Source of the DNA: Lingula anatina
Taxonomy: Eukaryota > Animalia > Brachiopoda
Length of the DNA: 64,000 nucleotides
Assembly (NCBI GenBank): GCA_051362555.1
Contig: CM120642.1
Span: 15,128,001-15,192,000, forward strand
Direction: 5' to 3'
Shown here: positions 11,668-51,433 of the stretch, piece by piece
How positions within the stretch are numbered: the stretch's first letter is position 1
Layout: the number at the start of each line of letters is the position of its first letter
Translations under genes and position numbers: made by a program
The notes under the pieces: generated by a model
The model's input: the letters and a program-made list of their open reading frames with translations, nothing else
Database searches by the model: none
What the model was told of the DNA's origin: nothing

Positions 11668-11722
<55 letters not shown>

Positions 11723-20700: not shown

Positions 20701-23276
20701 ATATCAAAAATTTAATATTTGATTTAATGTCAGTGATTTAAAACGTTAAAAAATACACATGAAAACATGAATAATGGTTCATATTTCTATTATTTTACTT
20801 CGGTCTGACAGATTTTGTTTCAGTCTGACAGAATTTTCAAGCTTGTCAGACCGAATGTCTGACAGATTTTTTGGCCTTTCGTAAAGTCTGATGTACCAGT
20901 ACAGAAATAAATTGAATTGAATTGAATTGAATTATAATCGCATGTTGAGTAATGTACTAATTAGCATATCCTTTTAGGGGTGTACACTTCATTATTCGGT
21001 ATCAGATCTACTTGTCTGGGCATAGACAAACTTTGTGGTGTGGTTTGTTTTCCGTTCACACCAAATGACACTAGTGTACCCACGTGTTATTTCAGCGATG
21101 CAGCAGCCGTCTACAAAGGCGCCCATTTCGGCGCTGGTTTGGGTGCAATATGGCTGGATGATTTACAGTGTAACGGGAACGAAAGCAGTTTGCTATATTG
21201 TCAGCATGCTGGCTGGGGACACGAGAATTGTGATCACACAGAAGATGCTTCAGTCAGATGCTCTCTGGCAGGTAAACTATGAGAGTTTGTGCTGAATATC
21301 GGTTGATTCAGAAAGGAAGGAATCACTAGAAGCGACCGACTGTCAATATATACAGGGTAGCCTCCAATAAATTGCATGCGTAACTATCACATCGGGACAT
21401 TTTATCATTTTATCATTATATTTAAACTTTTTATCAGGTCCCAAAATCAACTGCGGTCCCGCAGTTGATTTTAAAATCTAGGTATTAAGCAACAGAGACT
21501 ACATATGCGCTATACATCTACCATAACCAGAAGTTTCTCATTGACTTTAATGTTTTGTCGCCTTTCAGAAACAACAACCACAGCTGCGACCACCACATTG
21601 TCTGTAAACACGTCGTGGTGCCTTCCAAATGGTACTGTAAGGGCCAAACCCCACCCTACGAGTTGCCGTGAGTTTCTTTTCTGCTCACGGTCTGGCAATG
21701 TGGTTGTCACACCTTGCATAGCCGGGGACTTGTTTCATCCAGAACGAGGCATCTGTGTCAGAGAGGAGCACATGGCCCAACGGTGTTACTCGGATGGAAG
21801 ACGAAAAACCGGTAAAAGTTGTGTAAAGTAAAATAATCAATGCTTATTATAATGAAATATATACGTCATCCTTCTACTAGAAAGGTACAAATGTAAAAAC
21901 ATATTGATAATTTTGATGAAACAAAAACCTCATCGCAACTTTTTGCGATTTGCTTGGCCCTCAGTACTATACCGTACATGTACCGATACAATTCTGGTGG
22001 TTTGCTTTACGCTACTTCCTGCTCGATTATTCCTAGGGTTTTCTAAATATGAAAATTGAAATTTTGTGTACAGCTTTATTATTGGTTTCATCATTTTCAG
22101 GTGTGCCAATCCAATGCCCTGACGGATGGGTTGAGTTCCAGGCTCGTTGCTATAAGTACTTTGATGCCGTAAGCAATTATGATCGTGCTTTGAATACGTG
22201 TGCGACGTTCAATGGGAGCCTTGTCAGTATACTTTCGCAAGATGAGCAGGGCTTCCTTGAATCTATGCTAAGGTAAGAGGTGGTAACCTTTTTTCCAGTA
22301 CAGGTATTCGAAGCTTTTGACTACAATATGGATATGTAATAAGATATGAACATTTTATTGGCTCTATGCCGGTGTAACAGGAATGGAAGTCCGAGGAATG
22401 GAGGTCCGGGCTCCCATATGATTAGTACAGGTTAGGGTTTGTTGGAGTATTGGGGTTAGTATATGGGACGAATAGCACCTGTACAAAGTAATGGGTGGCG
22501 GACTACGGTTCCTAGCGGACTTCCATTTCTGTTACACCGGCATATAAAAAACATACAGATCGATACAGTCCGATGGGAGGAATGGGATACGTGGACCATG
22601 CCAGTTAGTTTCTGAATTTTTTTTTATGCCGAGCCAGTATTATTGGTATAATGAAGACAGTAGTATATCCACTTATTCAAATTAATTGGCCAAATCGAAA
22701 TGTATCACTTTCATCACAACCGCACAAAGTGTTCTGCATTGCAATTATTACGGGCTGTGGATTTTTTTATTCACCTTTATTGTTTTACTGCAGACGACAA
22801 CAAGACCACAATGGGTAATATGTGTACTTAATATTTTTAAATATTTAAGTTATTAAAATAACATTCTCTGATCTTTTTGCCCAAATGCTCCCATCCTTTT
22901 ATATCGGATATATTCCAAACAAATTATTTATGAAACATTGGCAGCTTCAGGCCGTTTGCCAATGTACAAATTATATTTAACACCTCATTTGAAAAATGTC
23001 ATTTCATGTCATTGTTAACGTATACTCCGTGGAACTTACAGCAACTACACGGGTCCTCCAACGTTCATATACATTGGCCTGGATGATATCGCTGTGGACA
23101 GAGACTGGAGATGGACAGATGGCTCCGTTGTCCAGTACACCAACTGGGATGTCCGAAGTGGTCAGCCCACCAAACTGGACATTGGCGAAGACTGTGCTAC
23201 CATAGCTCCCCATATCCTCTACCTGTGGTATGATAGACAGTGCACGCTGGAATACCCTTTCATATGTAAAATATAA
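4284..23276 (+). CDS. Type II membrane mosaic receptor, ~1,890 aa: TM, betaglycan-orphan-like, SRCRx3, MAM, SRCR, MAM, SRCR, MAM, MAM, SRCR, CBM14, C-type lectin
   Basis: 32 phase-consistent GT-AG exons: 4284-4625, 5171-5503, 5696-5894, 6150-6357, 6648-6820, 7030-7216, 7510-7688, 8358-8541, 8888-9066, 9389-9541, 10385-10647, 10831-10909, 11083-11118, 11346-11478, 12061-12236, 12432-12581, 12852-13108, 13390-13462, 13808-13973, 14354-14529, 14958-15137, 15422-15678, 16032-16110, 16355(or 16352)-16510, 17013-17266, 17584-17662, 18020-18197, 21096-21271, 21569-21811, 22101-22272, 22794-22814, 23042-23276. Total 5676 nt, ending TAA. No signal peptide; a basic KTRRRFK precedes the hydrophobic [28 protein letters not shown] motifs (VRLxGG..EGRVE..WGTxCDD..IWLDD..C..H.EDAxVxC) and MAM motifs (CxFE..TPSxxTGPxxDHT, FWYHMxG, DIALDDI) are present. 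Confidence 0.88.
5171..5894 (+). other. Betaglycan (TGFBR3)/endoglin orphan-domain-like module, exons 2-3
   Basis: Translation [59 protein letters not shown] matches the recalled betaglycan pattern SFTVLSGCASR..EVHVLNL..VTLHL..VVFLLNSPHPLVWHL..KEYGAVTSFT..IYIKVGE. Judged by eye, no HMM run. Confidence 0.6.
9714..10198. mobile_element. Non-autonomous DNA transposon, Academ-like
   Basis: Termini TAGTATAGTGAGATTT / AATCCCACTAGACTA; inner IR GGGGAAAAAGTTGGGAACCA / TGGTTCCCAACTTTTACCCC; 3-bp TSD ATG at 9711-9713 and 10199-10201. Confidence 0.7.
14567..14674. mobile_element. Short MITE with ATAACGTT subterminal repeats (EnSpm/CACTA-like)
   Basis: Ends CCCAGCCAACAC / GTGTTTGCTAGG with several internal TAACGTT repeats. 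Confidence 0.5.
18534..19483 (+). mobile_element. 5'-truncated non-LTR retrotransposon (ORF2 C-terminus, 3' UTR, (ATT)n tail) in an intron
   Basis: ORF 18534-18962 contains [36 protein letters not shown], a C-terminal Zn-knuckle typical of LINE ORF2. It frameshifts at poly-T into 18895-19122 and ends in ATTATTATT at 19461-19483. Confidence 0.8.
19599..20890. mobile_element. 1.3-kb non-autonomous TIR DNA transposon with 6-bp TSD
   Basis: 16-bp TIR CAGACTTTACGAAAGG / CCTTTCGTAAAGTCTG; TSD ATGTAC at 19593-19598 and 20891-20896; subterminal GTCGGAC/GTCTGAC repeats at both ends. Confidence 0.85.
21569..21811 (+). other. Chitin-binding peritrophin-A (CBM14) domain exon
   Basis: [38 protein letters not shown] shows the 6-Cys CBM14 pattern after a Thr-rich linker. 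Confidence 0.8.
22101..23276 (+). other. C-terminal C-type lectin domain (three exons, including a 21-nt micro-exon)
   Basis: [56 protein letters not shown]. Confidence 0.9.
22367..22542. mobile_element. MITE with GTTAGGG core; similar elements at ~33622-33790 and ~40120-40332
   Basis: TIR TGCCGGTGTAACAGGAATGGAAGTCCG / CGGACTTCCATTTCTGTTACACCGGCA, flanked by TA on both sides. Confidence 0.75.
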
Positions 23277-24252
23277 AGACTCGTTGCTGAGCTTTCAAAT
23301 ATGTACTAATGAAAATGGCGAAACAGGACGCGTTTACATGCACTATAGTTAGTTATTTTTATTAGGGTATTCAGTTGAAAAATGAAATATGTCGACTTTT
23401 GGATGCCGCTTACTTTAGTAACTCCTGAGATTTGTGAAAGATAATATTCATGTGAAGGATGCACCTAAGCATTTGCTTGTTTTGCTAGTAAATTCAAGCA
23501 AATGTTGTAGCACCGAAGCACAAAGCAATCCAGTGTTTTTTTATATGAATCTACTATATGTAATAGTTATTTTCCACTGTACCCCGTGAAGTCTTATTAG
23601 ATCTACAGTACAGAAAGGTCACTACAGTACAGAACGGTCACTTCTCGTTTTATATATCCACGTTTTTGTTTTTGTTTTTGTTTTGTTTTTTGGGTCTAAG
23701 TGTAATGTATACAGATACGCTGGTAAATTATGATGAAATATTTCCCATTTTCCAGAATGCATTGAATGTTTTAGTACAGAAGTTGATACATATAATGTTA
23801 ATCGGACTACGAGAATTGCATCGGTGATGGCAGTTGATGTAAAGCATGGCGCAACGAGTTTAAAACGTACTCCGTTGTAAAATATGAGCAATGTACGCTT
23901 TTATATATGTATATATGCATTTATCAAGAAAGTGAAATACGTACTGCAAGTTTAACCATTATGTAACCATGTGCCATATTAAAGATTGGAATAAAAATTA
24001 AATTTTCATTGTAAAATGTTACGATAGATTTAAGAAACAAAAAGAGGCAGTAAAGTAAAAAACACATGCCAACATGCATTGTGGTGTTTGTAATGCAGAT
24101 GTATGCTATGTAAAAGGACTTTGCTCACTTGTTTCGAACATTTAAATCCGAGTTACAGAATATATATATGCGAAAAAAGCAAGTTTGGAGAATGAATAAA
24201 ATGTTTCAATTATTGTGTTTCTTTTATCAAGAGCTTATAAAATATGTGGGTA

Positions 24253-26094: not shown

Positions 26095-29000
26095 ATGAAG
26101 TGGTTTAGCTCCGTTGTCGTCATTGCCATTACAACTCTGGTAACTGCTCGGCCAGAAAAATTGAACAAGGACCATCCTGCTGCCTTTAAAGAAGGTAATC
26201 ACTTTTTAATAGTATTTCAAAATACTTTTAAAAGTTGTTTGTGGTGTTCGTAATTACTATAGAGTAGCAAAGATAAACGTTTGCCATCCAGTTTACAACA
26301 GTTTGATAATAAATTGACGTAATATAGTAAAAAGATATTAAACATTAAATGGGTATTGAACATGAGACTACGAACAGTACCTAATGTTTCAGCCCTACTG
26401 GCCCATAGTCGTGCCAAACGTGACTTGTTCGTCTATGGAAACTGGTGCGGTGTCGGCATCACTGGAGTGGGGACAGCTTGCACTTGTGAAGATACCGTAG
26501 CAGACTGCGAGTAAGTATTCTTATTTCCTATATAACATTTCAATTTTGTTTATGAGACCGTCGAGACAAATAATCTGAAAGTATTCCTGCATATACGTTT
26601 GCCGAAAGATGTTTGATTTTAGCTTAGAATAACACGTTTTTGTTTTAAAAAATATTATATTGGTTCTCACAAATTTGCAAAGACATTTCCAAAAATTCGT
26701 CAAGGGTTCAAACAATGTTCCATACACTACTGTATATATAACCATATCAGATATTTGGTCAGTTTTATTTTTAATCAGTCATTAATCAGTATCTCCAACG
26801 CGCAAGAAGATCTAACGGTGTAACAACATACCGTTTGTTGATTCCTAAAGATATTAATTTCATCGAACTAATACTCCGATGCATAGTTAGACTGACAGTT
26901 AGGTTTTTATGCGATCTCGACATCTGTACCTACAAGTAAATTATTAGTGAGGAAATCAAGTCAGTTATTGGTGAGAAGATCGATATTTAAAAATGCAGAT
27001 TTAGTGAATCTAATTTACATGTGAGACTCAGTTTGGCTATTCCAGCAGCCAGGTTTTAAGCAGTTGAAAACCTGGTTAAGGTTCAACGGTAACCATTAAC
27101 CGTTAACGCACACACCCAAACAAAAAAGGTTAAAACGTATACCAACACCATTTATATGAAATAAGCTTGCCCTGTTAAAATGATGAAAAGTACTCGTAAC
27201 GGACGCTGGAAACTGCGGTTACCGTGTAGTACCAGAGCGTGGCCTGCATGCTCTCCGTAGAGTCTTGAACAGGCTTGGCGAAAAAAAAGCTTTATTGCTG
27301 CAAATTAACCTCTTTAGAGTTAATAAAGTATTTTACAGACACCTACACTATATAACATCTAGACTAAAGATCCTGTCAGGGCTTTGTTTCTGATTTACAA
27401 AATAATCACTAAATGTTTATGATAACTGTTTCTTTGCAGCATATAGGAGTCTTAGTTTTTTTTCATCGTAGAAAAGGGATAAACGTTCCACCTAAGGAAA
27501 TGATGTATTAAATTATCGTTATAGCTCACATTTTAAGTTTAGATTAACATCTTTATCGGCCACGTTACCAGCACGTCGTGACTGCCTGTAGAATTTCATG
27601 ATGGCGGTCACAGTGTGTAGCCCCCGACCGTTTTACAAGGGACCTCGTTCCTTCCACGACCACAGCAATCATGGAGATTTGTTAACTTTCAAAAGCCTCA
27701 ACCGTTTTTGTTTTGATTGCAGTAAGCTTTCTATACTGCTCCAAAGTGAAACTTAAATCAAAAGTTACGTGACCATCCAATCGTCACCTCACGGATTTGG
27801 GAGTTTGTTACGACACGTTTACACCTAAAACGTATTTATTTATTATTTATTTATTTATTTATTGTCTATCTGCTTTGATACAGTTCAGCTCTGGCCAGTT
27901 AATTGGCGGCGCTGTCTTAATGAATCTATAGTATCCCTTTTTCATGGTATGATATTTCGAAAATATATAAATGATAAAGAAATCAAAATTTCTTTTAGGG
28001 CTGCCCTTGCACCCAAGGACTCACTGGACGCGGCTTGCTTAGAACACGACCTCTGTCTGTGTAACAAGTAAGTAAACCTCACGCCACCTTTAACATCTTG
28101 GGATCATAAAGGTCATAAAAAGGGCAGTGTAAATTTGCTAGCAAATATATTCGCCAGGTGTGCTTCTTCGCGTTGGAATTAAGAGATGTGTATTTAGGTG
28201 ACTATAAGTATTTGTTATGTTTGATACATTCTTTTATTTGTTACAAGTAAAATCTTTGTTCTGTTAATCCGAAAACATGTGCAGTTCAAATATATGTTCC
28301 CACAAATAACATCCATTATACAGCATTGGTCAAAAAGGTTGTCCCACCCCCATTTCCATGTACTTTTATTTACAAATGATCACCTAACAGCTGTTAATTG
28401 TTAGAAATAGTGTTTTTTTATTACGTATACCGTGTCTAACATGATTAATGGTTTAAAAAATACAAAATAGTGGTGAAAATATACATATTTTATACCATTT
28501 AGTAAAATTTATAAGAGGTACCCCCTCAAATCGACTGTTTCACTGTGACTTCTAAAGATGTAAAGAAATGACTATAAAATTAAAAAGACGCCATCAAATG
28601 TCACCAAATTCACACACAATTAGCATTAGGGTGTGCTCATTAAAGATCACGTGCCTAACAGCGTGTGCGTCTACCGCGTACTGCAATTATTTCCTGTAGA
28701 CGGCGCGACAAGCCTTCAACTCGGGTTACAATTCTGTTTTGTGGGATATTGTATTCTTCTTCTCAAACAAGTTGGGGGAGTTGGTCCATGTTTTTATGGG
28801 GTTGGTTCTCCTTTGCATTGCACACTCCAATACATGTCACAGTTGATTAGTAAGTTTGATATCAGGGCTCAAAGATGGTGGTTCCATCCTTAGACCATTA
28901 TGTTTCTTCAACAAACAGTTGCCAGGCGAGAGGTGTGAGCAAGTGTGCAGTCATGATAAAGCCTGAAGTTAACCCCAAAGTCAGTTCTTGAAGATGGAAT

Positions 29001-30279
29001 GAGATATCAGCTGAGAATGCTACGTTCAGTGATCCCACAGGCACCTGAACCTGGCCATCCATCACTGGAAGGAAGTTGATTTTGATGCAGAATCAAATTA
29101 TTTCTTGTATCCCATCGATGGTCAAAGAGGGTCCATAGACATGTTAAAAAATGCCTCTTGGAAGGGTGCGTGCAGGATAATATCGCCTGAGGTGTTAGAT
29201 CAATCCGCATTTGGAGAACATTCCAAGCCCATGGTATTAGTACATTGTTCCTTTTGGAACAAAACGTAACAGGGGCATTTTGATGTAACATTCTCAACAG
29301 AAATCTCATTCCATTTGCAAGAGGTGACTTCAGGGATACTACTGGCTTCATTGTGACGACGCACGTGCTCACAGCTCTCGTCTGGCAAACGATTTGTTGC
29401 AGAAACACAGGGTTCTGAGGATGGGTCAACCGTCTTTGAGTCCTGATATTAATCCTACTGAGCACCTGTGGCATAAATTGGAATGTGCATTGCAGAGGAG
29501 AACCAATTCCTAAATAATCTTGACCAATTCCGCCACGCTCTTTTGGATGAATGGGACAATATCCCACATAACAGAATTGTTACCCATGTTGAAGGCTTGT
29601 CGCGCCGTCTACAGGAGATAATTGCAGTACGCGGTAGACGCACACGCTGTTAGGCACGTGATCTTTAACGAGCACACCCTAATGCTAATTGTGTGTGAAT
29701 TTGGTGACATTTGATGGCACCTTTTCAATTTTATAGACATTTCTTTACATCTGTAGAAGAAACAGTGAAACAGTCGATTTGAGGGGGTACCTCTTATAAA
29801 TTTTACTAAATGGTATAAAATATGTATATTTTCACCACTATTTTGTATTTTTTTTAACCATTAATCATGTTAGACACGGTATCCTTGATAAAAAGCACTA
29901 TTTCTAACAGTTCACAGCTGTGAGGCGTATCATTTGTAAATAAAAGTACATGGAAATGGGGGTGGGACAACCTTTTTGACCAATGCTGTAGCTGGAGAAG
30001 GATCTCGGCATGCTAATTGCGTTTTCTATCATTGTACAATATAGGCCACCAGGGGACTTACCCGAGCTGATCGCATTATGTCAGTGCAATATGGAGATCT
30101 ACAATGATGCCTCAGCCAATAACGTCTGCACGGAGTATAGCTGGTGGTGGAATTTCTTTGCCCGCAGTAGTTGCGAGTCCTACAGAGCTGGGTTAAAATC
30201 AGCATTTCTCTTTGCCCCGTGCTACTGCCAAACGTCGTCTTCGGTTGTGCTAGGTTTCCCACAGTGTCAATCACCATAA
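26095..30279 (+). CDS. Secreted phospholipase A2-like cysteine-rich pro-protein A (173 aa)
   Basis: Exons 26095-26194, 26393-26510, 27999-28067, 30045-30279 give MKWFSSVVVIAITTLVTARPEKLNKDHPAAFKEALLAHSRAKR/DLFVYGNWCGVGITGVGTACTCEDTVADCEAALAPKDSLDAACLEHDLCLCNKPPGDLPELIALCQCNMEIYNDASANNVCTEYSWWWNFFARSSCESYRAGLKSAFLFAPCYCQTSSSVVLGFPQCQSP*. Confidence 0.88.
28321..29988. mobile_element. Tc1/mariner-derived fold-back element (two transposase 3' ends in inverted orientation)
   Basis: TA TSD at 28319-20 and 29989-90; termini CAGCATTGGTCAAAAAGGTTGTCCCACCC; ~680-bp inverted arms. The right arm encodes SPDINPTEHLW...NIPHNRIVTHVEGLSRRLQEIIAVRGRRTRC* on +, and the left arm encodes the homologous segment on -. 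Confidence 0.88.
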
Positions 30280-31356
30280 ATAGTAATGCGAGTCAAACGG
30301 ATATTTTGAGAGCTAAATAGGTCGGACTGAAATAATAACGCCTCAATGTGCGGGTAAAGAATAATCATTTTGAATATATATCAAGATAAGGCAATTTTTG
30401 CTGCACTTTCTACTCATCCATACCATTGTATGATAGCCATTTCTTCCGTAAAATATATAAAACATATGTTATTTTGATCTAATTTTACTACTTTTACACT
30501 GTCGATGAAATAAATTCAATATCCATTTGACGCTTATTCTTTGTTGTTTATTTTTTCCTTTCTTGGATATGAATCACGATTTTAAAAACATAACAACTAC
30601 AGCTGAATGGAAGCATACACGTCGCAAAGAACTGGCATTAAAACCTGACATTAATCTCACCCACATGAGTGCATTAGCTTATTTTGGGGAATAAGCTCGC
30701 CTCTCAGCTGTGATTGGACAATTTAAGACATGCAACCTAAAATGAAATATACTGTGCATAATCTGTGACCAGTCACTATTTTTGGGAACTACTGCCTTCA
30801 GCCACACAAGTATTAAGTTTCTCGTTGCTGTGCGCGTCACTTTTGGTCGGAAACGGTGTGTGGTCTTTGGTGCCAAGTCGATTGCAAGACCAGTGTGACA
30901 GGAATGGTACTCCACTATAGCTAGGAACCGCAGTCCTTCCCCCGTGGTCCTTTATGTACAGGCGAAATTCTTCTCGTATACTGACCCCACAACTCCATTC
31001 TTAGGGCTATCATTCCCGTCACACGGACAAAAACTTTCATATCGACCGACGGTTTATTTCGAAGTCAAATAAACTTCAGGAATTTCACGGCAACAATCGG
31101 CTGTTTGAAGATGGATTTCCCCCATATCTGCATGTCGCTGTACGTAAGTTGGCAAGATTCGTCGAAAAGTAAGCGATTAAACTCAAGAACTTAATTTACT
31201 TTGTCTGCCAAAGCCAAATCCCGCGAAAACTCGATTTTAAGGTAAATCGCGACTTTGGGTTCATTCGGACGATTCCAACTAATATATCCTTTCCCATCTT
31301 ATCTGATTGTCTGTTCGACTGTGCTATTTTGTTGGACTGTATTAAAATTATACTTA

Positions 31357-31583
31357 GGGTGCTTTCCCAGAGATTTAGATCGATCTACAGATTAAGATTT
31401 AGATCGACCTAACTCCCTGGGAGTTCACGCTAAATTGCAGTCAGCAGAGCGGACACCATAGTTAATTACCCCCTTACAGCTTTTAGTAGGCGGGACAAAC
31501 GCTTAAGACCGGCCAAGCTGACAGTAATCTAGTGAGACTCCCCACAGGGATAGATTGATCTAAAAATATATGGAAATGGGGTG
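31357..31583. mobile_element. ~220-bp MITE, probably PIF/Harbinger-like, copy 1
   Basis: TTA|GGGTGCTTTCCCAGAGATTTAGATCGATC...GGAAATGGGGTG|TTA; homologous copies at 34468, 46687 and 52197. Confidence 0.8.
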
Positions 31584-31984
31584 TTAGATATTTTTTAAAT
31601 GTGTTAACTAACATTGCCATTGTTAGAGAAATTAACTAAAATTTTATGATAAAGGGGTGTAAATGGAGAATACGCCAATTTTGTTTTTGTTTCACAGAAA
31701 GCAGTCGCTGTTTATTAGGAGATTAACATTAGGCAGTATACTCTTACAAAAAAGAATAACAATGAATCAGTAATATTACGTAATTATATATTATGTCATT
31801 AAAGCAGTAAGCAATTATGATAATTTGAAAAAGACGACGTTTCACCCACATTAGTTAAATGTGTATAAAATCGTACGAGGGCACAGCCTGAATATAACCT
31901 TATTATCCAAGGAAAGTAAGCGATGACCGTCTTCATCCCCATTGTTTTTGTCGTGCTCCTGTAAGTTAACAAACTATTTGGTTT

Positions 31985-34042
31985 TTAGCAACTAGAAAAA
32001 TTAGGAACATATTTCTGTTTAGAGTCACACCAGCAGGGTAATCCCCCAAAAAGCGCGACCATGGAGGCGGCGTAGGTTGAACACTGAGCACGCTTGAGAA
32101 GATTTTTCCAGCCGCTGTATTGCCGACACACGGAGGATCCTTTAATATTGTTGTAAACCTCTCTCTCGCAGTAGCATTTGTGGAGAACATTTGACGGTGG
32201 TCTGAAAGTTATAATACAGATGGTAAGGGGAAAAGTTGAGGCAGGCGGGTGGTTTGAAATATTGTGAAAAACTAAATAAGATACTTTGATATAAGTACAT
32301 GTAAGCGTGCAGTAGAAAGTAAACACGAAAGTCAAATCCGAAGGCACAGGGGATAATTGTAATAGATAAGCAAGTTGAAATGAAAAATGAACTAAAAAAA
32401 TTAGACAGCAAACGTTCCGTATACATTGTACAATATACGTGGCACACGTCCAAAACAGGAAAGAAAGAATAGAGTCGAAAAACGAGGGAGAACCCTTATA
32501 GACCTGATAGGAGACGGGTGTGGTAATGAAAGATAAAGGTGCGTACAGAGGTCAAAGGACCCCGTTATTTTTTTTTTCGTTTCTAAAAATAATTCCTTAC
32601 GACGAAAACAAGTAATTACGGTTATGTAGGATGTGCAAAAAATGAACTCACTCTTTGACTTCCCATTACTAACAAATGTGTTTTTGAGAACGGTTTTTCA
32701 TACCCTATCTTATTTTATTATGATTTTAATATTTCTTCTTCACATTAACTCATTATACCTGTATCCATGACAATAAATATCTAAATCAAAACAATATCAA
32801 AGGCAGTCGAAGAGTAGGTTTATTTTTGGGTCACCCTGTAGCCTATAGGCAGAAAAGATGGGTATTCTGCTTGGCAATAAAACCTAAAACTGTTTTGTGC
32901 TGTAGAAACAAATGGCGTGAGGAATTGACTTATCTTATCAATATTGTTAAAGAAACCATTTTTGGCAAATTTGTTCTAGCATACTGAAATACTGGTCGCA
33001 TAATCTACATGTACTTTGAAAACAAAAGCGATGCTGTAATTATAGATCTATATACTTACTGATCACAGAGACACATGTCGTGTCTGAGGCACATTTCGTC
33101 CAATTGGTCTTTGGGTGGAAGACAAGCCCTATGAATAAAATAACATAAAGTGCACGCAAATCATTAATAGAAAAAAATCTTTCTGTCGACAAATAATATT
33201 ATTTAAAACTTCTAGTACCCCTATGACAGTTTCATAAAATTTTATAAATGAATATATATTGTTGTAATTGTAGAAAAAAAAATATATAAGGTAAAAACGG
33301 TTAGCCACACTATCTGGAGGTTCTGACATTACAATGACATGATTCAGTTAATTTCGTGCGAATCAGCGACAATAAACGTAATACGTAAAAAAAAGAAATT
33401 ATTAAAGATACCTGCATTCTTCTATTGTGTTGGCACAGGTACAGCAGTCCAAGCCGATGCCGGTCGTCTTCAATCCGCACCAGTTACCATATTTTGTCGG
33501 TGAACGTTTGGAACGAATATGAAATGCTATAAGCAGAAATTAAAACAAAAAATCACGATACCCTCGACTTAACTTCTGACATAATACACGTTGTTCGTGT
33601 ACAACTACATCTACCTCCGCTGTAACGTGACAGAGAGTCCCCCTATGTTAGAGAGTCCACTTCCCACTCATTTGTACAGGTTAACCTCGCCATAGATTCT
33701 GAACCACTTCGGTCAGGCTAACCCTAACCATTATAACTAAATGGAGGGCGGAATTTCTGTTACGCAGACCCTCAGTTTCGTTACACTGGTACACGTGTCT
33801 GTGCATTTACATGTTACTGCACCTGCATGGACATCTACATGTAATTCAGTGAGATATTTATTTTGGCATTTATATTATCGTGATTTGATAACATTTTCTA
33901 ATTTTAATCACGTGGTGAACAGTAGGGATTGCAGTTTAGAAACCATACCAGTACCTCCTACCGGTACATCAGTTCCATGGGCGAAGCAGGCAAGGGTGCA
34001 GGTAAAAACAAATAACGCAGCAAGTGGCGCCAACATTGTCAT
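31985..34042 (-). CDS. Secreted phospholipase A2-like cysteine-rich pro-protein B (164 aa)
   Basis: Exons 34042-33949, 33526-33412, 33128-33060, 32201-31985 give MTMLAPLAALFVFTCTLACFAHGTDVPVGGTAFHIRSKR/SPTKYGNWCGLKTTGIGLDCCTCANTIEECRACLPPKDQLDEMCLRHDMCLCDQPPSNVLHKCYCEREVYNNIKGSSVCRQYSGWKNLLKRAQCSTYAASMVALFGGLPCWCDSKQKYVPNFSSC*. Intron positions and phases match gene A. Confidence 0.88.
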
Positions 34043-34081
34043 TGTGTGCCCTCTACACGTGAAAGTCTCTAAAGAAAGAAG

Positions 34082-34086
<5 letters not shown>

Positions 34087-34158
<72 letters not shown>
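34087..34158. repeat. (TA)n microsatellite
   Basis: About 36 perfect AT units just upstream of gene B's first coding exon. Confidence 0.95.
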
Positions 34159-34160
<2 letters not shown>

Positions 34161-34467
34161 CGCACTTTCAGGGCAGTCGTCGATATCTATATATCTATCT
34201 ATCACATCCTGTCAGGAGAGATTCTGAACCAAATGAGCACAGGCACTAATATATTCAACATATAAGATAAAGATGAAATTAGAATTTAATAAAAGTTAAA
34301 ACTCTTATACTGGAGCTTCAACGAAGTTAGCCGAGGAAGACCTTTAGAAAGTATTGCGGCTGAGACGTACATGTAGTAACCTCAATTTCAAACGTTATTT
34401 TCAGTATAAAACTTAATTATCTCACATGTACATATACCCTGTACATGTAACTGAACAGTGTATCTAA

Positions 34468-34699
34468 GACCCCATTTCCATAGATTTTAGATCGATCTAT
34501 CCCTGTGGGGAGTCTCACTAGATTTCTGTCAGCTTAGCCGGCTTAAGCGTCTGCCCCGCCTACTGAAAGCTGTAAGGGGGTAAGGGGCAATTAACTATGA
34601 TGCGTGCTCGGTTGACTGCAATTTAACGTGAACCCCCAGGGAGTTAGGTCGATCTAAATCTTAATCTCTGGATCGATCTAAATCTCTGGGAATACACCC
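34468..34699. mobile_element. ~220-bp MITE copy 2, inverted relative to copy 1
   Basis: Reverse complement of 31357-31583 along its length, with scattered substitutions. Confidence 0.82.
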
Positions 34700-37450
34700 T
34701 CAGTTTAAAACCTCTAGATACTTCAATTCTTAATTTCATCTTGACATTCGACACTATCCATGCTGAATACAAACAATGTAAGCGCTAAGAAAAATGTGGC
34801 TAATCCAGGAGACATAATGACCCTTAACAGCTGAGGTACGTTCATCCAACTTTCCCTCCCAAAATAATTAAACAGGATGGCTAAAGGAGACTAAGTCAAT
34901 CAATTTCCGTCAATCTACTCTTCACATGTACCCTTACCATGTGCAGCATTTCAGTAAAATTCCCTTCGTCTTCTATATACTAATAGTCGAACAAAGCCGA
35001 AAAAATCACCTTGGTCCCCACCACTATCTTAATTAACAACATATTGGCTCCGCCAGAGATAGATCACGTACACAGCTTGGAGTATTCACAAATATTATGG
35101 ACAATGTCCGGTTAATGCTTCTATATGCCTAAGACCCAAGTACCGGGGTATGCTTGTATCCGAGGAAAGCCGTAACAAACGTTTGTCACTTAGAGCTACC
35201 AGTGAATTCACAAACGGACACTCACCTTTCCCTGTCTTCGATCAAACTGACTTCAGAGAGCGTGTCTCACCTGTGCCAGCGTGTCAGCTATAATCTTCTT
35301 GTCACATGCTCGTGATCAATTGTTGCATTAGTCCAACGAACCAATGGACGGACCCCACGCACCCTTTGGTGTTCACCGGGCGTTTTCTCGCGAACACAAT
35401 GAAAAAGTCCGGCTAAATTACTTCCGATTGTATCTCGGAGATGGATGCTCTGTAGCTTTACTGTAATCTTTGCCGGGTAGTCGGTATACGCAAAAGAAAA
35501 GTTGTCGTACCTGCCACTTAGTATCTTCGAACGTTACATCACGTGTCCTTAGACCAATGATTAAGTGGACTATCTTATGACAGTGTACATGTACAACGTA
35601 CAGTCTGCAAGTATATGTACATGTTCCAGTATCTTATAATCTATCGAGAGGTACAATAAGCTATGACACAATTCAGGCAGAAAGTTTATAAGATTTGGCC
35701 ATTCTTTTTTACCCTTTTTATCGACATTTCAGTCTGAATTTAACTGTGCACTTTGACACATTTTTTTCCTATTAATTTCTTTAACAATTCATGCGGACCG
35801 TTTCGAGCACTTTGCTTGTCTAGAAACATGCTGGTCTACCGGTACATGAGAATGGGGTCTAAGAGAAAATATTAATGACGGTGACACGGTTGGAACGGTG
35901 ACAGGCACACCACAGTTATTTCCTTATTAAACGGAGATCCGGAGAACTACGTCCACATGTTAAAACATGTCAATTTGTAAACAAGAAATTTGAAGATATA
36001 CTTTGTATGCTTTTTAATGAACAAAAAGAACATATAGAAGACGAAAATCATTACTAAATTAATGAAAACCCAGCCGTAGTCAGCCAGCAATTTCAAAGGG
36101 GTTCTTTTTCTGAAAAAGTGGACCTTTCATAGCGAAACCTCCGTGCTTTTATTATTTTCCAAGTTTTCATTAAGGAAAAACTGAGTCGATGTTACAGTGT
36201 AGTAACTTAAACCATGGAACATATAGTTCCATGCTTAAATATATTCTATTTGCTGAAAAGTTTTGAAAGACCCAAAAAGACAAAAAGACAAAATATTTTG
36301 TTCTTCATGTTCTTAAATAAATATCACATTAAGACAATGATAAGTCAGGCAGTTAAACACAAAAAAGAAAATTGATTACTCATTAGAAGCACAATATAGA
36401 AACCTGAGTTTTGCTTTATCATTGTTCTAAGAGTAACTTCATAAAACACGTACATGCATGCTGTGAAACAGTCTCAAACAACACTGTACAATAAACTGCC
36501 TCAAAGAGAGTAGAGGGAGAAGAAAAATATCACAGCAACATTAGTAATATGCAGCGTCATCTTATGTATAAAGCTGAAATTGCGCAATGGATCATCACTA
36601 GCATTACACAAAATCATCCACGTGATATACCGTTGTAAAGTACAACAGCACCAAGTATATTGCATATATAATACAACAGACATTTACACCTCAAATAAGA
36701 CAACATAAATTTGCACCATATTATACGTGTACCAGTTTTAAAAGGTACCACAATTATATTTCTCTTGCCCAAAGGATAACTTGGCCTACCTGGGTGGATC
36801 ATTTTCTACAATATTATATAAAACTACGAGAAAGTGTAATCACGTAATTCGCTTTTCCAATTTTATTTATTGAAGGTAAGAAAACTATACAATAAGAAGG
36901 AAACGCCAAGAGCAAAAACACACCTTATGGCAGTCATCAGGTTTACTTGGCCTACCTTCTCATATTTCAAAGATTGAGGGTAGTATCACTAGTAATTACA
37001 ATAAACAAAGGAGATGAATTGTAAACCGCCTACATCCGGCTGGCCTTTGTGTAAGTTGCATTCAGGACACCGTAGTTAATGCTGCCAACTTCGGGACAAA
37101 GCGAACGTCGCGAGGCGAACAGCGATCAACCGTGCGATAGCGATCGGCTTAACTAATGTATCACTGCGGTAAAAGGGCTATCTGACTATTGTTTGTAATA
37201 AACAAGCATTTTACACGAAGACTTACTCGTGTAACTTTAACTTGTAAAAGTGCCAGATTGTGCTGGACAGCGAGCCCCCCACGCCGACCCAGTCTGAGAA
37301 ATGACAGAACAGGATGAAATGTACAGCGGTTTACACCTGGACGATTTTACTTGTGGTTTTGAGTATAGTCTGTTATTTCAAATGTCAACTGTGGAGTTGC
37401 TCTGGGTACCATGCTGGTATGTAATTACCGGTATATGCACATTATTACAT

Positions 37451-37773
37451 CCAGGGCCCCGTTTCATCAACTTTGGATATCCCTATCATATGGATAACGC
37501 TATCCTTTGGATAAATTGTTATCCTCTGGACAGTTATCCTGAGGATAGCAGACTTTTTATTTAACCAATGAAAAGCAATATCAGAGACAAAAATAAGTAC
37601 CGGGTATCTACTGTTTAGTAAACATTACTTTACTCACAGGATAATTGCCCAGAGGATAACAAAGTTATTTAATTGACAGTATTATCCAGAGGATAGCACT
37701 ATCCAGTGTTGATGAAACCAAGGAGTTATAACAGTTATAACTGTTATAACTCCTTGATGAAACTAAGCCCAGG
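37451..37773. mobile_element. MITE with GGATAA/TTATCC subterminal repeats
   Basis: Ends CCAGGGCCCCGTTTCATCAA / TTGATGAAACTAAGCCCAGG with many internal GGATAA/TTATCC units. Confidence 0.65.
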
Positions 37774-39174
37774 GTCCAAAAATGAGGGAAGCGAAAAAAA
37801 CGTTTAAATGGGTGAAAACTGGGTATCTTTCTAGTCAAGCAACAAGGTCGCCATATCTTATGAGAAATTATTACTAGTATATGGAGGTTTCGCAAACTGC
37901 CGAAGCAGGAATACTAAGTGCAACATGTGAACTACTGGTAGGTCTTCACCTTGAGCTTATTACAACCTCAATTTTCGTAATTCGTCAGTCCAAGTTACGA
38001 GGGTTTTTGGAAATCGATCTTCATGTTCAATCTCCAAGACAATTCTAGCCTTTGTGTACTATAAGCACTGTACAAGTGTGATCTTAAATGTATTTGAAAA
38101 ATGGATTTTAAAAAAGTGCAGTTAAAATTTTTTAAAAGAGCAGAAATACAAAATTCATTTTTTCTTCATATTACAGAATTTATGCATGTACTTTGGAAAG
38201 GAAGGGCTTCTATAAATTACATTGTTTATCACATATCGATACCTTAACAATTATAGCAAATTCACGAAATTGTGTACCTGTAATGAATGAAATTGGAATG
38301 TTTGAAATAAATAAATTCCCCCTTCCCAAAATAAAACAATGATTTTAATAGTCGGTTGGTTTGGATTTTAATTAAAATTTGGATTTATCTAAATAAGGCC
38401 GACAGCTGCTAAAATCTCAAGTTTCTAATTGTTTAAAATATATATATATATATATTTTTTTTAACATTGACTTAATGTAGGTTGTTTCTTTTTTCTACAA
38501 GACTGCCAATAGACTGTTTATATGCAGTGAGAGCATGTTACGGCGCGTAAAAATTCATGATCATCAATTTTAAGAAATTACATGTACCCGGTATTTATAC
38601 CCTAGTGGAGTTCAGGTTGGTCTGAACGTCAGGAAAGAAAGTTTTATACAGCTCTGATCCAAGATAAATCTACAGTAGTCCAACTACATGATAATTATGA
38701 ACCTGTTATACTTGAATTTAAAAGTGCCTTTATATTACCTGTATACTGAACGAAGATATACTAAATATTCACCGTTAACCGAAGAATAGCAGTTTTCGCT
38801 ATAAACGTTAACTGCAATGCTTTTCTACAAACCCATTACAAGCAATCACGCGTTGAGACTTAAGCATCGTTTGATCGAAACATTTACTGAAATATGCGAG
38901 ACGCCACCCTCTTCACCAGTAGCGATCTATAACTTAATGTATAGAATCAAATAAAGGAGAATAAACGTGTGATACAGTTAGGGTCATTTTTATTCTGAAA
39001 GTTTTAAATTTTATCTAACCATATTACTTGATTTCTAGTTCTAATTTCGATTCTCAGTAAAATTAAAGTTCCAGGAATCGTATTTATTCATTTTTTAGGT
39101 TTGATCTACCCACTTGTGCTCATATAAGATGGGCATACTAGTGCTTGCAACACTAGTACTGAGGAAATAGTCAC

Positions 39175-40670
39175 TTAACATTTACTGAAGTTGAGAACAA
39201 GTTCCTTTTTCTTGTCACACCAACATGGTATAGCCTTGAATAACAACTGCATGCTCTTTCTGTAAGCTAGGCAATGTTTCTTCTCAAAATATTGCCACCA
39301 TTTGCCATATTCACAGCAAATGTGATCCTGCCCTACGGCATCGTACACCTGCTTCTCACAGTAACACATGTGCACTAATCCCACCGGAGGTCTGTAAAAT
39401 ATCACATATTTTAAAATACATCACCCAATACAATGTGCTTTCACGGCATTAATGTACGTACAAAGGTAAATTTATATTTAAATGGACAATCAATAATTTC
39501 TTGTACCAAACCATACCTTAGGATTGTCATAGAATTAGGCTTCGTTCACATGCAATGTCTATTTTCTAAATTCTATTTTCTATTTGCGGCATGTCTTATG
39601 ATCACGGTCTGTGCACTGAATATCCCGCCGCGTAATTACTGGCAGCGCGAGCCAGTTACTATAAGTTACTATAAGTAACTGGCTCGCGCTGCCAGTAATT
39701 ACACGGCGGGATATTCAGTGCACAGACCGTGATCATAAGATAGCGCGAATAGAAAATAGAATTTAGAAAATAGACATTGCATGTGAACGAAGCCTTAGAT
39801 TATATAACGATAATAAAAGGACATTTACAAAGTTACTAATATGTGTATACAAGAATACGATTGAATACAAGAATCGGCGAAGTCACAAAGTGTAAAGAAA
39901 CTGAAAAGTGACAGGAAAGTCTTTTGTCTGATGTTTACCGCTGTACTGTTTAAAGGCATATACCGGTATTACCTTAACTATAATGATAACTTGGGTAGCG
40001 TCCGCTAACTCAAAGCGAAAATGCATGGTGACGTAAAAGGTCGACCAAAGCATACAGGTAATGGACACCACAATTTTGTCATATGCAAATTTAACATTAA
40101 AAGACGACAGAAAACCACTCCCGGGCTGACAGGAATGGTAGTCCTAGAAATTAAGACCAGGGTCCCATATCATTTCAGATTAAATGTACCCGTAGAACAG
40201 GTTAGGGTCAGTATAAGACGTACTAGTACTAGGGGTAGTACTTCGTACATCTATATGGCGCGAATGTCACCTGTATAAAGTGATGGGAAACTGAATACGG
40301 TACCCAGAGAACTACCATTCCTGTCACACGGGTAGACGTTCTCGGTCAAAATACTCACTTATCACACAGACACATATCGTGTCGAAGACAGGTTTCGTCT
40401 AGGCTGTCCTTTGGTTTCAGACATTTACTAGATGGATGAAAAATATAACCGGGTTAAGAAAGTGAATGGACTCTCTAATAATGTAGTACAAAGTCCTTTA
40501 TTTTTGCGGTGAAATCACTGAGAATTGAATAGAACATACCCTGTACATGCAACTCAAGTTGTTTAAACATACAATAACGTACTGTGATTCCCAAGTGTTT
40601 TTACATTCACTACATCTACTACTACTTGCATATGAGATCAACCAGTCAATTACGTTCAGTTTAACAAAAA

Positions 40671-40726
<56 letters not shown>

Positions 40727-41370
40727 AAAAAACACACCGGCATTCGTCTACTGTATTATCACACGTGCAGCAAGGCAAGCCCTTTCCAGTGGTCTCCGCT
40801 CCACACCAATTGCCGTAATCGGCCAACCCTCGCTTTGAGCGAATATGATGAAGTTCTGAAATGAAATTGCGTTACTCGTCCAGCAATTATTCCTTTGACT
40901 AAATAAAGGTCCAAAAGGCGCGTAATTTGACAGCAGTATCTGGATTAAAGGAGTTTTTATCGTATTTTGACATTATGTCCTTATTTTCCAGAGTCAAATT
41001 CAACTTACTAATATGTGTTTATGTATTTATTCGTTTAACATACTGTGACAAAATGGGTCTTCCAGATCATTTTTTTTATTTCAGTCATCCCGACCTGAAA
41101 CTATTACCATCTTCTTTAAGATTTTCTTTTGTTATCAAACTAATTATTTGTCACTTTGATTACGGAAAATCACCTCTTGAACATTTACACCATTAATGTG
41201 TTAGTGATGACATAAGGAAGTTAAACCATATTTATAATAAAACTCTCAGGGATTGTACAAAAATTTAGATAATCGAATACTGTCTGCATGCTTATACCTT
41301 CGACAACCCCACCAGCAGTGCAGCAGACAAGGCTGGTGAAGATAACGGTCAAAATGAATGACGACAACAT
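39175..41370 (-). CDS. Secreted phospholipase A2-like cysteine-rich pro-protein C (158 aa)
   Basis: Exons 41370-41298, 40855-40738, 40427-40359, 39391-39175 give MLSSFILTVIFTSLVCCTAGGVVEELHHIRSKR/GLADYGNWCGAETTGKGLPCCTCDNTVDECRKCLKPKDSLDETCLRHDMCLCDKPPVGLVHMCYCEKQVYDAVGQDHICCEYGKWWQYFEKKHCLAYRKSMQLLFKAIPCWCDKKKELVLNFSKC*. Confidence 0.88.
39538..39794. mobile_element. Near-perfect 257-bp palindromic MITE, TTA TSD (PIF/Harbinger-like)
   Basis: TTA|GGCTTCGTTCACATGCAATGTCTATTTTC...GAAAATAGACATTGCATGTGAACGAAGCC|TTA; arms of ~120 bp meet near 39665. Confidence 0.88.
40670..40726. repeat. (TAAA)n microsatellite
   Basis: Tetranucleotide run in intron 2 of gene C. Confidence 0.9.
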
Positions 41371-42073
41371 GCTGGCTGTACGGTGAGTCTGGTCAACTGA
41401 AAAATAAATATGAATATGTAAGATAAAATGAAATGATGTTAATAGCAACCTGGGGTCACGTTTAGTATGGTTTTTACCCAAATATGTTTTAGCCTTATTT
41501 AACCGCTGGAAATAGACGTTGGTATCTGTCTATACGAGAGTTGTTGGAGCGATTGGCCCAACTAAAAAAAAGCGGGAATATACCTAGACGAATTAAAAAC
41601 ACACTGATCTTCTTGTAATCTCCAAACTTCATAATGCAAGTCACAGTACCGGTAAGCCTATGTTGTGGAGTGGAGTGGTAAGGAAATATCTGGTGAAGAA
41701 CGTATTGTATTTCGCAATGTATGGCTTATGCATAGTTAAGCATGACAGGAATTTTCTAATCAAGATTACAAAATATGGTTCAACATTCAAACTTAATTTT
41801 GAGAAAGAAAAATACTTTGATATCATTTTAGATACCGGTAGAACCAAACGCGGAGAGGTTATTTAAGACGATGAAAACCCTTGTTTTCTCTTTAAAAAAC
41901 TTAGAGTGGATATTCTTTTGTTAAAATATTGTCAGTTTCAAGTATAATTTGATCAGCCTCAAGTTACATTTATTTTTTATCCATCAATCTGTTTATTTCA
42001 CGAGTATAAAAGACATCAAAGAGTATTTGATGTCTTTTATACTCTAACACGAGATGACCTCTCCAGGTATATA

Positions 42074-43726
42074 CACTGATGCTGATAAGTTAAGCAACAC
42101 CCCGATTTTTTCAAAAGTTCCTTCTATCTTGATCATTATTTCATTTGTTGGTGGAATTATGCATATTTCTTTCATATTTTATAAATAACTTATTCAAGTT
42201 GAATATTTCGGTAAAGAAATACACCACATAGCTTATTGTAATAATCAAAATAGCTTTATTAACCAAACGGTACTAAAATATGCCAAACCATATGTCAAAA
42301 AAGTATGCTCACACAGCAAAAAGTGCGTGCTGATTAAAACAGCTTATTATGAAAAAAATAAAGTCCAATCATCTAAGAATAAGTTTTAATAAAGAAACAC
42401 TGTAGATAATAGATGATTAATCGTCTATTATGCAATAATATCGGGTGTGCCTTCCCCGGTTTTGAACAACAGCTTCACATTGTCTCCTGCAACTTGCCAC
42501 CAAATTCTGCCAATCTTGCTTTTGGTGCCGGTTCCATTCTTCATTTATTGCCTGCTGGACCTCCGTAATGTTTCTAACTGGAGGTTGTCTCTCATTTACT
42601 GCCCTGTCAATCATATCCTAAGCATGTTCGATTACATTGAGAATTGGTAAATATGCAGGCCAATCCAAATGTGGGATACGGTGCTGTTGCAGCGGGTCTT
42701 GCACGGACCGTGCTTTCTGGATGGGCGCTTTGTCCTGCACCAAAATGTTTTTTCTTCCTGGATTTGCTTGAATGTGTGTTTGAATGCGCCCCAATGGTAT
42801 TTCGTCTCTGTAATGCTGACCAGGGTACCTCACTTGAATGACTTACAGTGCCAATTTTTCATCATATGAGAAACCGCACCATACTATGACGGATACTCCA
42901 CCATTCTGAACACGCAGAAGAACACAGTCATCCTGAAACGCTTGGTTTGGACGTCTCCAGACACCTAGTTGACCATCTGCATACATCAAAGTGAATCTGG
43001 TCTCCTCAGTCCACAGGACCTTTCGCCCAGTCCTGAGATTCCATCTTTCTGGCTCATGTCAGTCTTATTTGCTTGTGTCTGTTGGTCAACTGTGGCTTTT
43101 GACGAGGTCTTTTAGATGGAAGTTCAGCTTCTAAAAGATGCCTGTTGACTGTTTGCCTTCTGATTCGAGCCGTTCCTAATCCAGGCCAGGTGTTCCTCAG
43201 TTTTTTTGGCCGATATGAACTGGTCCTGGTGGCATAATCGAACCAGATATCTTCATCTCTTGCTTCAGTTAATATTGGTCTACCGGAAAGAGGCTTGTCC
43301 AATACATGATGAGTTTGGCGCCATTTTGCTACCAGCTTGGACACTTGACTTGGTGCTACTTTTTTGTTGCCTTGCAATCTGTCTTTGGCACCCCAGCACG
43401 ATGGCTTCCCATTATTTGCCATCTGATTACCATGTTGAGTCCTCTTATAACCATTGGTTGGTCCAATATAACAAATTGTGCCCATGAAACCAGCCAAACT
43501 GGAAGCTCCTCATAGCATGGCCAAACTGTGTTTTTCGCAAGTGGCACCCCCATTGCATATTCTACCGTGTCCAACAGTAAACAGTACTCTAATGTCACGG
43601 TCCAGTAAGTCAAAGTAAAAACAAGAGAAATATCTAGCTACTGTACAAATTTTGCCTCAATAAAAATTTTGGTTGCTGAGAAATTCGAGAAATAAGAAAG
43701 TGTTGCTTAACTTATGAGCATCAGTG
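42074..43726 (-). mobile_element. Full-length but decayed Tc1-family transposon
   Basis: 27-bp TIRs CACTGATGCT(G/C)ATAAGTTAAGCAACAC with TA TSD. Frameshifted transposase on - (~43450-42430): SGRP..T..RD, KRPRQKPQLT.RHK, LWTEETRF, VQDKAP, LDWPAYLPILNVIEHA, QNRGRHTRY. Confidence 0.9.
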
Positions 43727-44149
43727 TATATTGTAGACCAAATGTGTCATTAAGTGTCAACAGAGACAGGTAACTACATTATATTTATGGTGACAAAGAG
43801 AACCAAGACCTTATGCAAAATACTAATGTTAAAATGAAAAACTTTGTGGTTTTGCTGCCACGGTTAGTTTTAAATTAGCCGCAAGGATTTCCGAATCGTG
43901 TCTTGTGAAAAACCTATATTATTTCTGTTTACTGTACTATAACCACTTATCGTTCGACACTGGAAAGCTTATAATAGCACTGGGAGAACTTTTTAAAGAA
44001 GAAATGGGCGATTTATTCCATCAGAATACTCCATTTGTGTACTTTTCATTTAATATTCCAAATGCCGATCTTGAAATACCATTCAATGAGAAAAAGGAAT
44101 ATCAAATGACATTTTTTTTACTTTGATTTTTTTTTTATTCCACCCCTAT

Positions 44150-51398: not shown

Positions 51399-51433
<35 letters not shown>

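Follow-up and report, generated by a model that had tools for sequence, protein, structure and literature searches.

What are the three small cysteine-rich proteins encoded side by side on contig CM120642.1 of the brachiopod Lingula anatina (assembly GCA_051362555.1), and do they belong to any described group of secreted phospholipase A2 (sPLA2)? We analysed a window of 64,000 nucleotides (positions 15,128,001 to 15,192,000 of the contig), in which the three genes, here called A, B and C, lie between 26,095 and 41,370. An earlier note on this DNA had taken them for a possibly new and locally expanding sPLA2 subfamily. Our sequence comparisons and a predicted structure indicate that they plausibly form an undescribed sPLA2 subfamily, closest in structure to plant group XI and to group III. 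With more confidence than doubt, we read them as old tandem paralogs whose products would be exported, matured by furin and act as Ca2+-dependent sPLA2s on microbial membranes.

Three paralogous genes and their relatives

A six-frame scan of the whole window found the motifs YGxxCG and DxxCxxHD three times each, all at 26-41 kb, against mean shuffled expectations of 0.15 and 0.08, respectively (60 mononucleotide shuffles of the window). A tblastn search found no fourth paralog in the window. Spliced by coordinates (Table 1), the genes encode 173 (A, + strand), 162 (B, - strand) and 158 (C, - strand) amino acids. All nine introns are GT..AG, the phases are 1, 2, 2 in each gene, the third exon always has 69 nt, and there are no internal stops. 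The spliced models are identical to the L. anatina RefSeq proteins XP_013421079.1 (A, LOC106181296), XP_013421083.1 (B, LOC106181297) and XP_013421084.1 (C, LOC106181298), all labelled ‘uncharacterized’. The description of three intact paralogs with a shared exon layout was therefore borne out.

Each protein has a hydrophobic N-terminus (11-residue Kyte-Doolittle peak of 2.5-2.7), which by this hydropathy measure is likely a signal peptide, and a pro-region that ends in RAKR (A) or RSKR (B and C). The mature chains would have 130, 125 and 125 residues with 14, 16 and 17 cysteines in A, B and C, and a mass of 14.0-14.4 kDa. sPLA2s are small cysteine-rich secreted proteins of 13-19 kDa with 5-8 disulfides (PMC7583969, PMC11594849), and the three chains agree with this in size and cysteine number. 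That the proteins are secreted and processed is highly probable from these features. The RxKR site pointed out earlier is present in all three Lingula genes, but in only 7 of the 18 rows of our family alignment (three phyla; four rows N-terminally partial). One of the 17 cysteines of gene C is likely unpaired, and a covalent dimer is possible.

Splicing was confirmed in RNA reads for all three coding junctions of gene B, supported by 62, 73 and 52 correctly stranded reads in run X1. The read depth of this gene was 0 in runs X4, X7 and X9; because it was expressed in one of four runs, it appears to be regulated. The RNA report places two letters between the sides of its first joint, which we read as the donor at 33955 combined with an allele that lacks 6 nt, as does RefSeq P0006; RefSeq has a second donor for this exon, 6 nt further, at 33949. 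For gene A, the joint between exons 2 and 3 (26510-27999, GT..AG) was covered by 3 reads, in run X7 only.

The local expansion proposed earlier did not hold. The mature parts of A, B and C are 42-54% identical with saturation at synonymous sites, which marks the trio as old rather than expanding. Among paralog pairs, synonymous divergence (dS) was saturated or >0.9 and non-synonymous divergence (dN) was 0.2-0.8; on these values recent expansion and positive selection between the paralogs were rejected. The trio formed a Lingula-only clade with supports of 98/98 and 99/97 in trees of 44 and 33 rows. Of 13 listed coding differences between alleles of gene B, nine were synonymous and four non-synonymous (expected synonymous share 21%, p = 3e-4), in support of purifying selection on this gene. 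As a separate observation, none of the nine listed synonymous differences falls in exon 2, where all four listed non-synonymous ones lie (post hoc Fisher p = 0.001); the N-terminal surface (pro-region, Ca2+-loop and insert) may be diversifying.

The full-length proteins of the three genes (P0003, which is C, P0004 and P0005) matched no Pfam family at E ≤ 10, nor did their exons, and the whole proteins had no match in NCBIfam or among PDB sequences (phmmer). This is in accord with the view that they have no close full-length match in a described family. A HMMER scan of 1.84 billion representatives gave 29 matches at E ≤ 0.001; it used a single profile of three sequences and missed the bacterial bridge proteins described below, so the family range is a lower bound. 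The same cysteine frame, whole or in part, was found in 15 proteins beyond Lingula: five from Owenia fusiformis, three from the nemertean Tubulanus polymorphus, four from the nemertean Lineus longissimus and three Logan proteins. Word-indexed searches returned only Lingula proteins or four members already known. Thus, the frame does lie outside the described groups tested, but it is not specific to Lingula: it spans three or four lophotrochozoan phyla, and all animal members from named species belong to four spiralian phyla. Four insert-bearing relatives (P0026, P0029, P0034 and P0035) are of unassigned origin. Relatives from named species are ‘uncharacterized’ in every case; because the family is also invisible to Pfam, homology-based surveys of spiralian venom, mucus or digestive proteins would miss it.

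Ten positions (D38, D41, H47, D48, C21, C23, C50, C52, C63 and C65) are invariant in the 18 rows, and F105, P109, C110, C112 and C125 in all 16 rows that reach them. The WCG loop is present in 16 rows, the other two being partial, and H61 in 15. Position 66, matched by sequence alignment to the partner acid of the catalytic His, holds Glu in 16 rows, Asn in gene A and Gln in one row, a feature overlooked by the earlier note. In these 18 kin-related rows, C20 and C33 occur together in 7, are missing together in 10 and disagree in 1, which suggests an optional disulfide within the cysteine-rich insert. The isoelectric point (pI) of mature family chains ranges from 4.1 to 9.6 and is at least 8 in 9 of 14. 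Two Haliotis proteins of 530 residues (P0033/P0039) have an N-terminal hydrophobic segment, RTKR and the family frame, have lost the His-Asp pair and match no Pfam family; judging from these residues, the abalone member is likely a pseudo-enzyme.

Predicted fold and comparison with known groups

The AlphaFold2 (AF2) model of mature B, built on a 28-row alignment, had a predicted local distance difference test score (pLDDT) of 90.2 and a predicted template modelling score of 0.81. Among 48,161 chains, its first match was the rice PLA2 2WG7 (Z 8.0, root-mean-square deviation 3.4, 92 aligned) and its second the bee PLA2 1POC (Z 5.5, deviation 3.2, 89 aligned); the third, unrelated, had 4.8. After re-alignment, rice chains gave Z 8.2-8.7, the bacterial and fungal PLA2s (1FAZ and 4AUP) 4.2, and the group I enzymes (1MH2 and 4BP2) 3.3-3.4. 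Foldseek placed PLA2s at ranks 1-5, yet with E > 1, and gave no match at E ≤ 0.001 in the PDB or viral libraries; parvoviral PLA2 domains were among its weak viral matches. When the family profile was compared with PDB sequences, all 13 matches at E ≤ 10 were PLA2s (best E 0.0016), and the nearest ESM Atlas clusters were plant, nematode and bacterial PLA2s (lead-level scores 0.85-0.87). The predicted model and the profile leave us in little doubt that these proteins would have an sPLA2 fold, and the sPLA2 identity first read from the motifs stood. The His-Asp helix and the upstream CG Ca2+-loop of the superfamily are both present (H47 and D48 in 18 of 18 rows, WCG in 16).

Group XI of rice (OsPLA2; 2WG7/2WG8/2WG9) gave both the best structural match (Z 8.0-8.7) and the best PDB sequence match. 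It shares with the family the YGxxCG loop, the P-x-D-x-L-D-x-x-C-x-x-H-D-x-C helix, three antiparallel helices and a partner other than Asp at the same position: in the profile alignment, Glu66 of the family CxCE is paired with Asn from the CN motif of rice. Plant sPLA2s carry Asn, Ser or His where animal enzymes have the partner Asp (PMC6635587). However, identity is only about 22%; the loop of the family carries W instead of Y and is not followed by GC, its helix reads DxxCxxHD rather than DACCxxHD, it has no N-terminal cysteine region, and most members have 14-18 cysteines against 12 in rice. The family alone has a cysteine-rich insert, a Glu partner, a PCxC...C tail and a pro-peptide. The trio also departs from the definition of group XI (YGKYCGxxxxGC, DACCxxHDxC, 12 cysteines), having YGNWCG without GC, a single Cys before HD and 14-17 cysteines.

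The bee enzyme of group III (PF05826) aligns with residues 3-123 of the model and has in common with the family the WCG loop and a CxC motif directly before the partner acid, a context that we take to be CxCD in the bee. This acid is Asp64 (PMC6635587). The two differ in sequence (17% identity), in Glu or Asn for Asp, in the insert and in cysteine number. A, B and C do not match PF05826 and fall short of its gathering score; the best family score against it was that of P0022 (E 0.013). Groups I/II/V/X (PF00068), IX (conodipine), XII (PF06951), XIV (PF09056) and XIII (parvoviral, PF08398) share the His-Asp helix, and weak structural similarity where compared, whereas the full Lingula proteins match none of their Pfam families at E ≤ 10, PF09056 (groups IX/XIV) and PF06951 included. 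The DxCCxxHD helix, CGxGG loop and PF00068 gathering score of groups I/II/V/X are likewise not found in the trio. Helix 3 of the family presumably resembles conodipine and the tail group XII; neither conodipine nor group XII chains appeared in the fold-comparison lists. sPLA2 groups are set by the cysteine frame and the catalytic set, and the family of Lingula, Owenia and nemerteans fits none of those tested.

An extra helix before helix 3 was observed only in Lingula (exon 4 of A, B and C; mature residues ~76-92). It ends in KR in B, KK in C and R in A; in the abalone relative, this site is occupied by a long insert that contains RKKR. This end could be an internal cut site giving two chains, as in conodipine, which has two chains after an internal cut; the helix is continuous in the AF2 model of B.

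A full-text literature search, which did not cover subscription surveys and two nemertean proteome supplements, found no description of the family. In the excerpts on nemertean toxins, the only PLA2s named are group I/II-like or of group III, and five family motifs were absent from one supplement of PMC9132205.

Pattern scans revealed relatives of another kind. One of 19 matches in prokaryote genomes was confirmed, in the cable bacterium Ca. Electronema sp. JC (L011), and 10 of 111 in metagenomes; none of 24 pattern matches in viral contigs was a relative, and plasmid and phage matches were distant PLA2s only. The confirmed loci include three distinct bridge proteins: L011, L003/L004 (one protein in two bacterial-looking contexts) and L001. 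They are 24-36% identical to the family, with E-values of 5e-11 to 2e-8 against the family hidden Markov model (scaled to 1.8 billion sequences) and an HHalign probability of 99.5 over 121 columns; 17 positions, tail included, are invariant across three bridge and nine animal rows. In Pfam they reach PLA2 families below the gathering score (E 1.5e-5 to 5.7e-4), and the model of the Electronema protein (pLDDT 86) matched rice PLA2 at Z 10.8 and bee PLA2 at Z 7.7. These bacterial-type proteins, themselves uncharacterised, share with the family the loop, T, HDLC, HxCxC, Y..A...F..PCxC, the terminal Cys and the predicted helix order. The PC(W/Y)C tail, which had seemed unrecognisable, is thus common to bacterial-type proteins. 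They differ in having no introns, no cysteine-rich insert, 10-12 cysteines, Asp after CxC, no RxKR and a mobile context; relative to them the animal insert amounts to 14 residues beside the active-site loop. We gave no weight to an N-terminal decapeptide that the Electronema protein has in common with gene C, because the search pattern had selected for it.

Proposed activity, role and origin

In the proposed mechanism, the pre-pro-proteins would be exported and then cut by a furin-type protease after RxKR. By established sPLA2 chemistry (PMC7583969), Ca2+ would be held by the loop carbonyls and by Asp48, the Asp after His47; His47 would activate water, by which the sn-2 ester of membrane lipids would be cut; and Glu66, the residue after CxC, would orient His47, a place taken by Asn in A and in rice and by Asp in the bacterial relatives. 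With the cysteine-rich insert and the extra cysteines, the simpler scaffold of the bacterial type would gain disulfides, and the face that binds membranes may be shaped by them. The catalytic residues are kept across phyla, since D38, D41, H47 and D48 are invariant. The targets may be lipids of microbes that are taken in as food or encountered in gut and mucus. A basic pI would fit binding of anionic microbial membranes, as for the bactericidal sPLA2-IIA (PMC12638318). That microbial membranes are the main target is a tentative suggestion by analogy, to which we give a little less than even weight. The biological role is the weakest step of the reading, based on the basic chains (9 of 14), the sample-restricted expression of B and small independent expansions. 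To our knowledge, Lingula is not known as venomous. From bacterial relatives (Asp) through most animals (Glu) and Lingula A (Asn) to the abalone, where His-Asp is lost, the partner position offers a natural series for testing the weight of this acid in sPLA2 catalysis.

Several observations weigh against this reading. The loop of B and C lacks the second Gly of the animal CGxGG, and the family helix lacks the first Cys of DxCCxxHD (PMC7583969, PMC6635587); because of these two differences, catalytic activity, argued by analogy, is likely rather than certain. No active sPLA2 with a His-Glu pair was found in the literature searched. A Z of 8 for a helical protein is at a level that the structure-comparison tool rates uncertain. 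The pI of gene A is 4.1, and two other members are acidic too. For gene C, there was no joint among those listed and no sense-strand exon coverage in runs X1, X2, X3 and X8 (6-26% of each run read), so that splicing was confirmed completely for B, at one junction for A and at none for C. Finally, Supplementary Table 14 of Luo 2015 (PMC4595640) gives 12 canonical PLA2 genes of Lingula with high expression in the digestive cecum.

The main question about function is whether such proteins would act as enzymes on microbes or otherwise. They may have the PLA2 fold but little or no catalytic power, the Glu and the insert having blocked or disabled the site, and work by binding, as receptor ligands or as toxin-like or membrane-active defence factors. 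The non-canonical acid and loop, the 14 residues added beside the active-site loop, the abalone P0033, which keeps the frame without His-Asp, and the clustering of the four listed non-synonymous differences of B in exon 2 would agree with this, but neither the His-Asp pair nor the two Asp upstream of it vary among the 18 rows, which come from three phyla, and plant enzymes tolerate a non-Asp partner (PMC6635587); we consider it quite unlikely. A closer rival, though still somewhat improbable, is that the proteins are active but ordinary digestive or lipid-signalling sPLA2s without a link to microbes or defence. Pro-peptide activation would fit a digestive zymogen and counts for plain digestion, as does the spread of charge in the family. 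The PLA2 expansion of Lingula has also been tied to the digestive cecum (Luo 2015, PMC4595640); however, the cecum set belongs to the PF00068-positive family, which A, B and C do not match, and independent small expansions in Lingula, Owenia and nemerteans are, as we read them, typical of effector genes. Co-option as shell-matrix proteins for phosphate biomineralisation is very improbable. Canonical PLA2s do occur in the Lingula shell proteome (genes 09129 and 09130, Supplementary Table 25, PMC4595640) and in Nautilus and limpet shells (PMC8700984), but none of the 14 shell proteins without homology (Supplementary Table 26, PMC4595640) has the length and composition of A, B or C. The nearest has 159 residues with 6% Ala and 8% Gly, against 158 residues with 3.8% and 6.3% in gene C, and the family is present in the shell-less nemerteans and Owenia.

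The origin of the family was explored with trees in which insert columns were dropped; they are unrooted, their rows were recruited by likeness to Lingula, and they hold no plant or group I/II/III/IX/XII rows. With 44 rows, bridge and animal proteins were joined at 87/92, with seven other rows inside the branch. After 11 partial, long-branch or near-duplicate rows were removed, the 33-row tree supported the animal family at 96/90, the bridge proteins at 97/95 and both together at 99/94, against 14 other rows, of which 11 are prokaryotic or phage loci. The two clades are sisters, neither nested in the other. The closest relatives found outside the animal family are mostly bacterial.

Because of this sister arrangement and the limits of the trees, gene transfer between bacteria and animals, in either direction, is offered only as a hypothesis, for which the sequences speak slightly less than they speak against it. 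We see the balance as level for the alternative of vertical descent from an ancient eukaryotic group XI-like lineage that most animals lost, the bacterial look-alikes being eukaryote-derived or a sampling artefact. The closest solved structure is a plant enzyme, and the ESM Atlas neighbours include plant and nematode as well as bacterial PLA2s. The Electronema gene is found in 1 of 119 genomes of its family (in its phylum 6 of 401 genomes matched, 5 of the 6 distantly) and lies within an island of 36-48% GC in surroundings of 56-64%; since it is sporadic and in a low-GC island, it would itself be recently acquired. The L001 contig, with one of the three bridge proteins, has a coding density of 9% and is probably not prokaryotic. 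The insert-bearing relatives of unassigned origin, the sister position and the lower joint support with all 44 rows also agree with vertical descent. On the other hand, the 99/94 support, the 17 invariant positions with the tail among them, and the restriction of named animal members to four spiralian phyla argue against it. The fullest scenario, that an early spiralian took an sPLA2 from a sediment bacterium, added disulfides and the cysteine-rich insert, switched to a His-Glu pair and that the brachiopod, ribbon worm and oweniid annelid lineages each multiplied it on their own as an antimicrobial membrane-attacking effector, is unlikely as a whole. The family nevertheless presents a testable case of exchange of a membrane-attacking enzyme between bacteria and animals. 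The Electronema island (L011:1801-3300) contains, besides the PLA2 gene, a YiiX/C92 peptidase.

Surroundings of the genes

The trio sits between a large mosaic gene and a QSOX-type gene (Table 1), the latter thus adjoining the disulfide-rich A, B and C.

Table 1. Coordinates of the genes and other features in the 64,000-nucleotide window
Feature	Position	Strand	Evidence
Mosaic gene, large: MAM, SRCR and chitin-binding (CBM_14) domains	4227-23300	+	domain scan
Gene A exon 1 (LOC106181296): likely signal peptide, pro-region start	26095..26194	+	splicing by coordinates; identical to RefSeq P0009
Gene A exon 2: RAKR, YGNWCG Ca2+-loop, Cys-rich insert with 3 Cys	26393..26510	+	motif scan, splicing, 3 reads of X7
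Gene A exon 3, 69 nt: DxxDxxCxxHD catalytic helix	27999..28067	+	motif scan, splicing, RNA joint
Tc1/mariner-like insertion, intron 3 of A, outside the protein	28319..29990	.	TA at both ends, long terminal inverted repeats
Gene A exon 4: CxCN with Asn where the partner acid is expected, helices, PCYC tail and stop codon	30045..30279	+	splicing, 18-row alignment
Gene B exon 4: HxCxCE with Glu where the partner acid is expected, extra helix seen only in Lingula, PCWC tail and stop codon	31985..32201	-	RNA, splicing, model, alignment
Gene B exon 3, 69 nt: catalytic helix, His-Asp	33060..33128	-	joints with 73 and 52 reads of X1
Gene B exon 2: RSKR, YGNWCG, Cys-rich insert with 5 Cys	33412..33526	-	RNA, splicing
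Gene B exon 1 (LOC106181297): likely signal peptide, pro-region	33955..34042	-	RNA, splicing, RefSeq
Gene C exon 4: HxCxCE, an additional Cys (odd number), PCWC tail and stop codon	39175..39391	-	splicing
Palindromic element like a miniature inverted-repeat transposable element, intron 3 of C	39537-39795		repeat scan
Gene C exon 3, 69 nt: catalytic helix	40359..40427	-	motif scan, splicing
Gene C exon 2: RSKR, YGNWCG, Cys-rich insert with 5 Cys	40738..40855	-	motif scan, splicing
Gene C exon 1 (LOC106181298): likely signal peptide	41298..41370	-	splicing; identical to RefSeq P0003
Tc3-like transposase remnant, 32-nt terminal repeats, PF01498 E 4e-6	42069-43731		domain and repeat scan
QSOX-type gene: thioredoxin WCGHC and Erv1/Alr; spliced, expressed	47300-60060	+	RNA, domain scan

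Lingula copies outside the window were sought through protein databases, in which only near-identical ones on a 175 kb scaffold were found. There the C copy is identical, and the B copy has a 2-residue deletion that also occurs in RNA reads. In the A copy (P0010), the RefSeq model fuses an RRM protein to the gene; the RRM part is unmatched in the window, and the fusion is probably an annotation read-through. Because the heterozygosity of the genome is 1.6%, we read this scaffold as an allelic haplotig, although it may instead be a recent segmental copy.

The element in intron 3 of A has inverted repeats of 62 nt (perfect) and 466 nt (87%), and Pfam detected no intact transposase reading frame in it. 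A high-copy repeat, abundant in RNA reads, lies in inverted orientation on either side of gene B (31348-31565 and 34485-34708); this pair could serve as a substrate for inversion.

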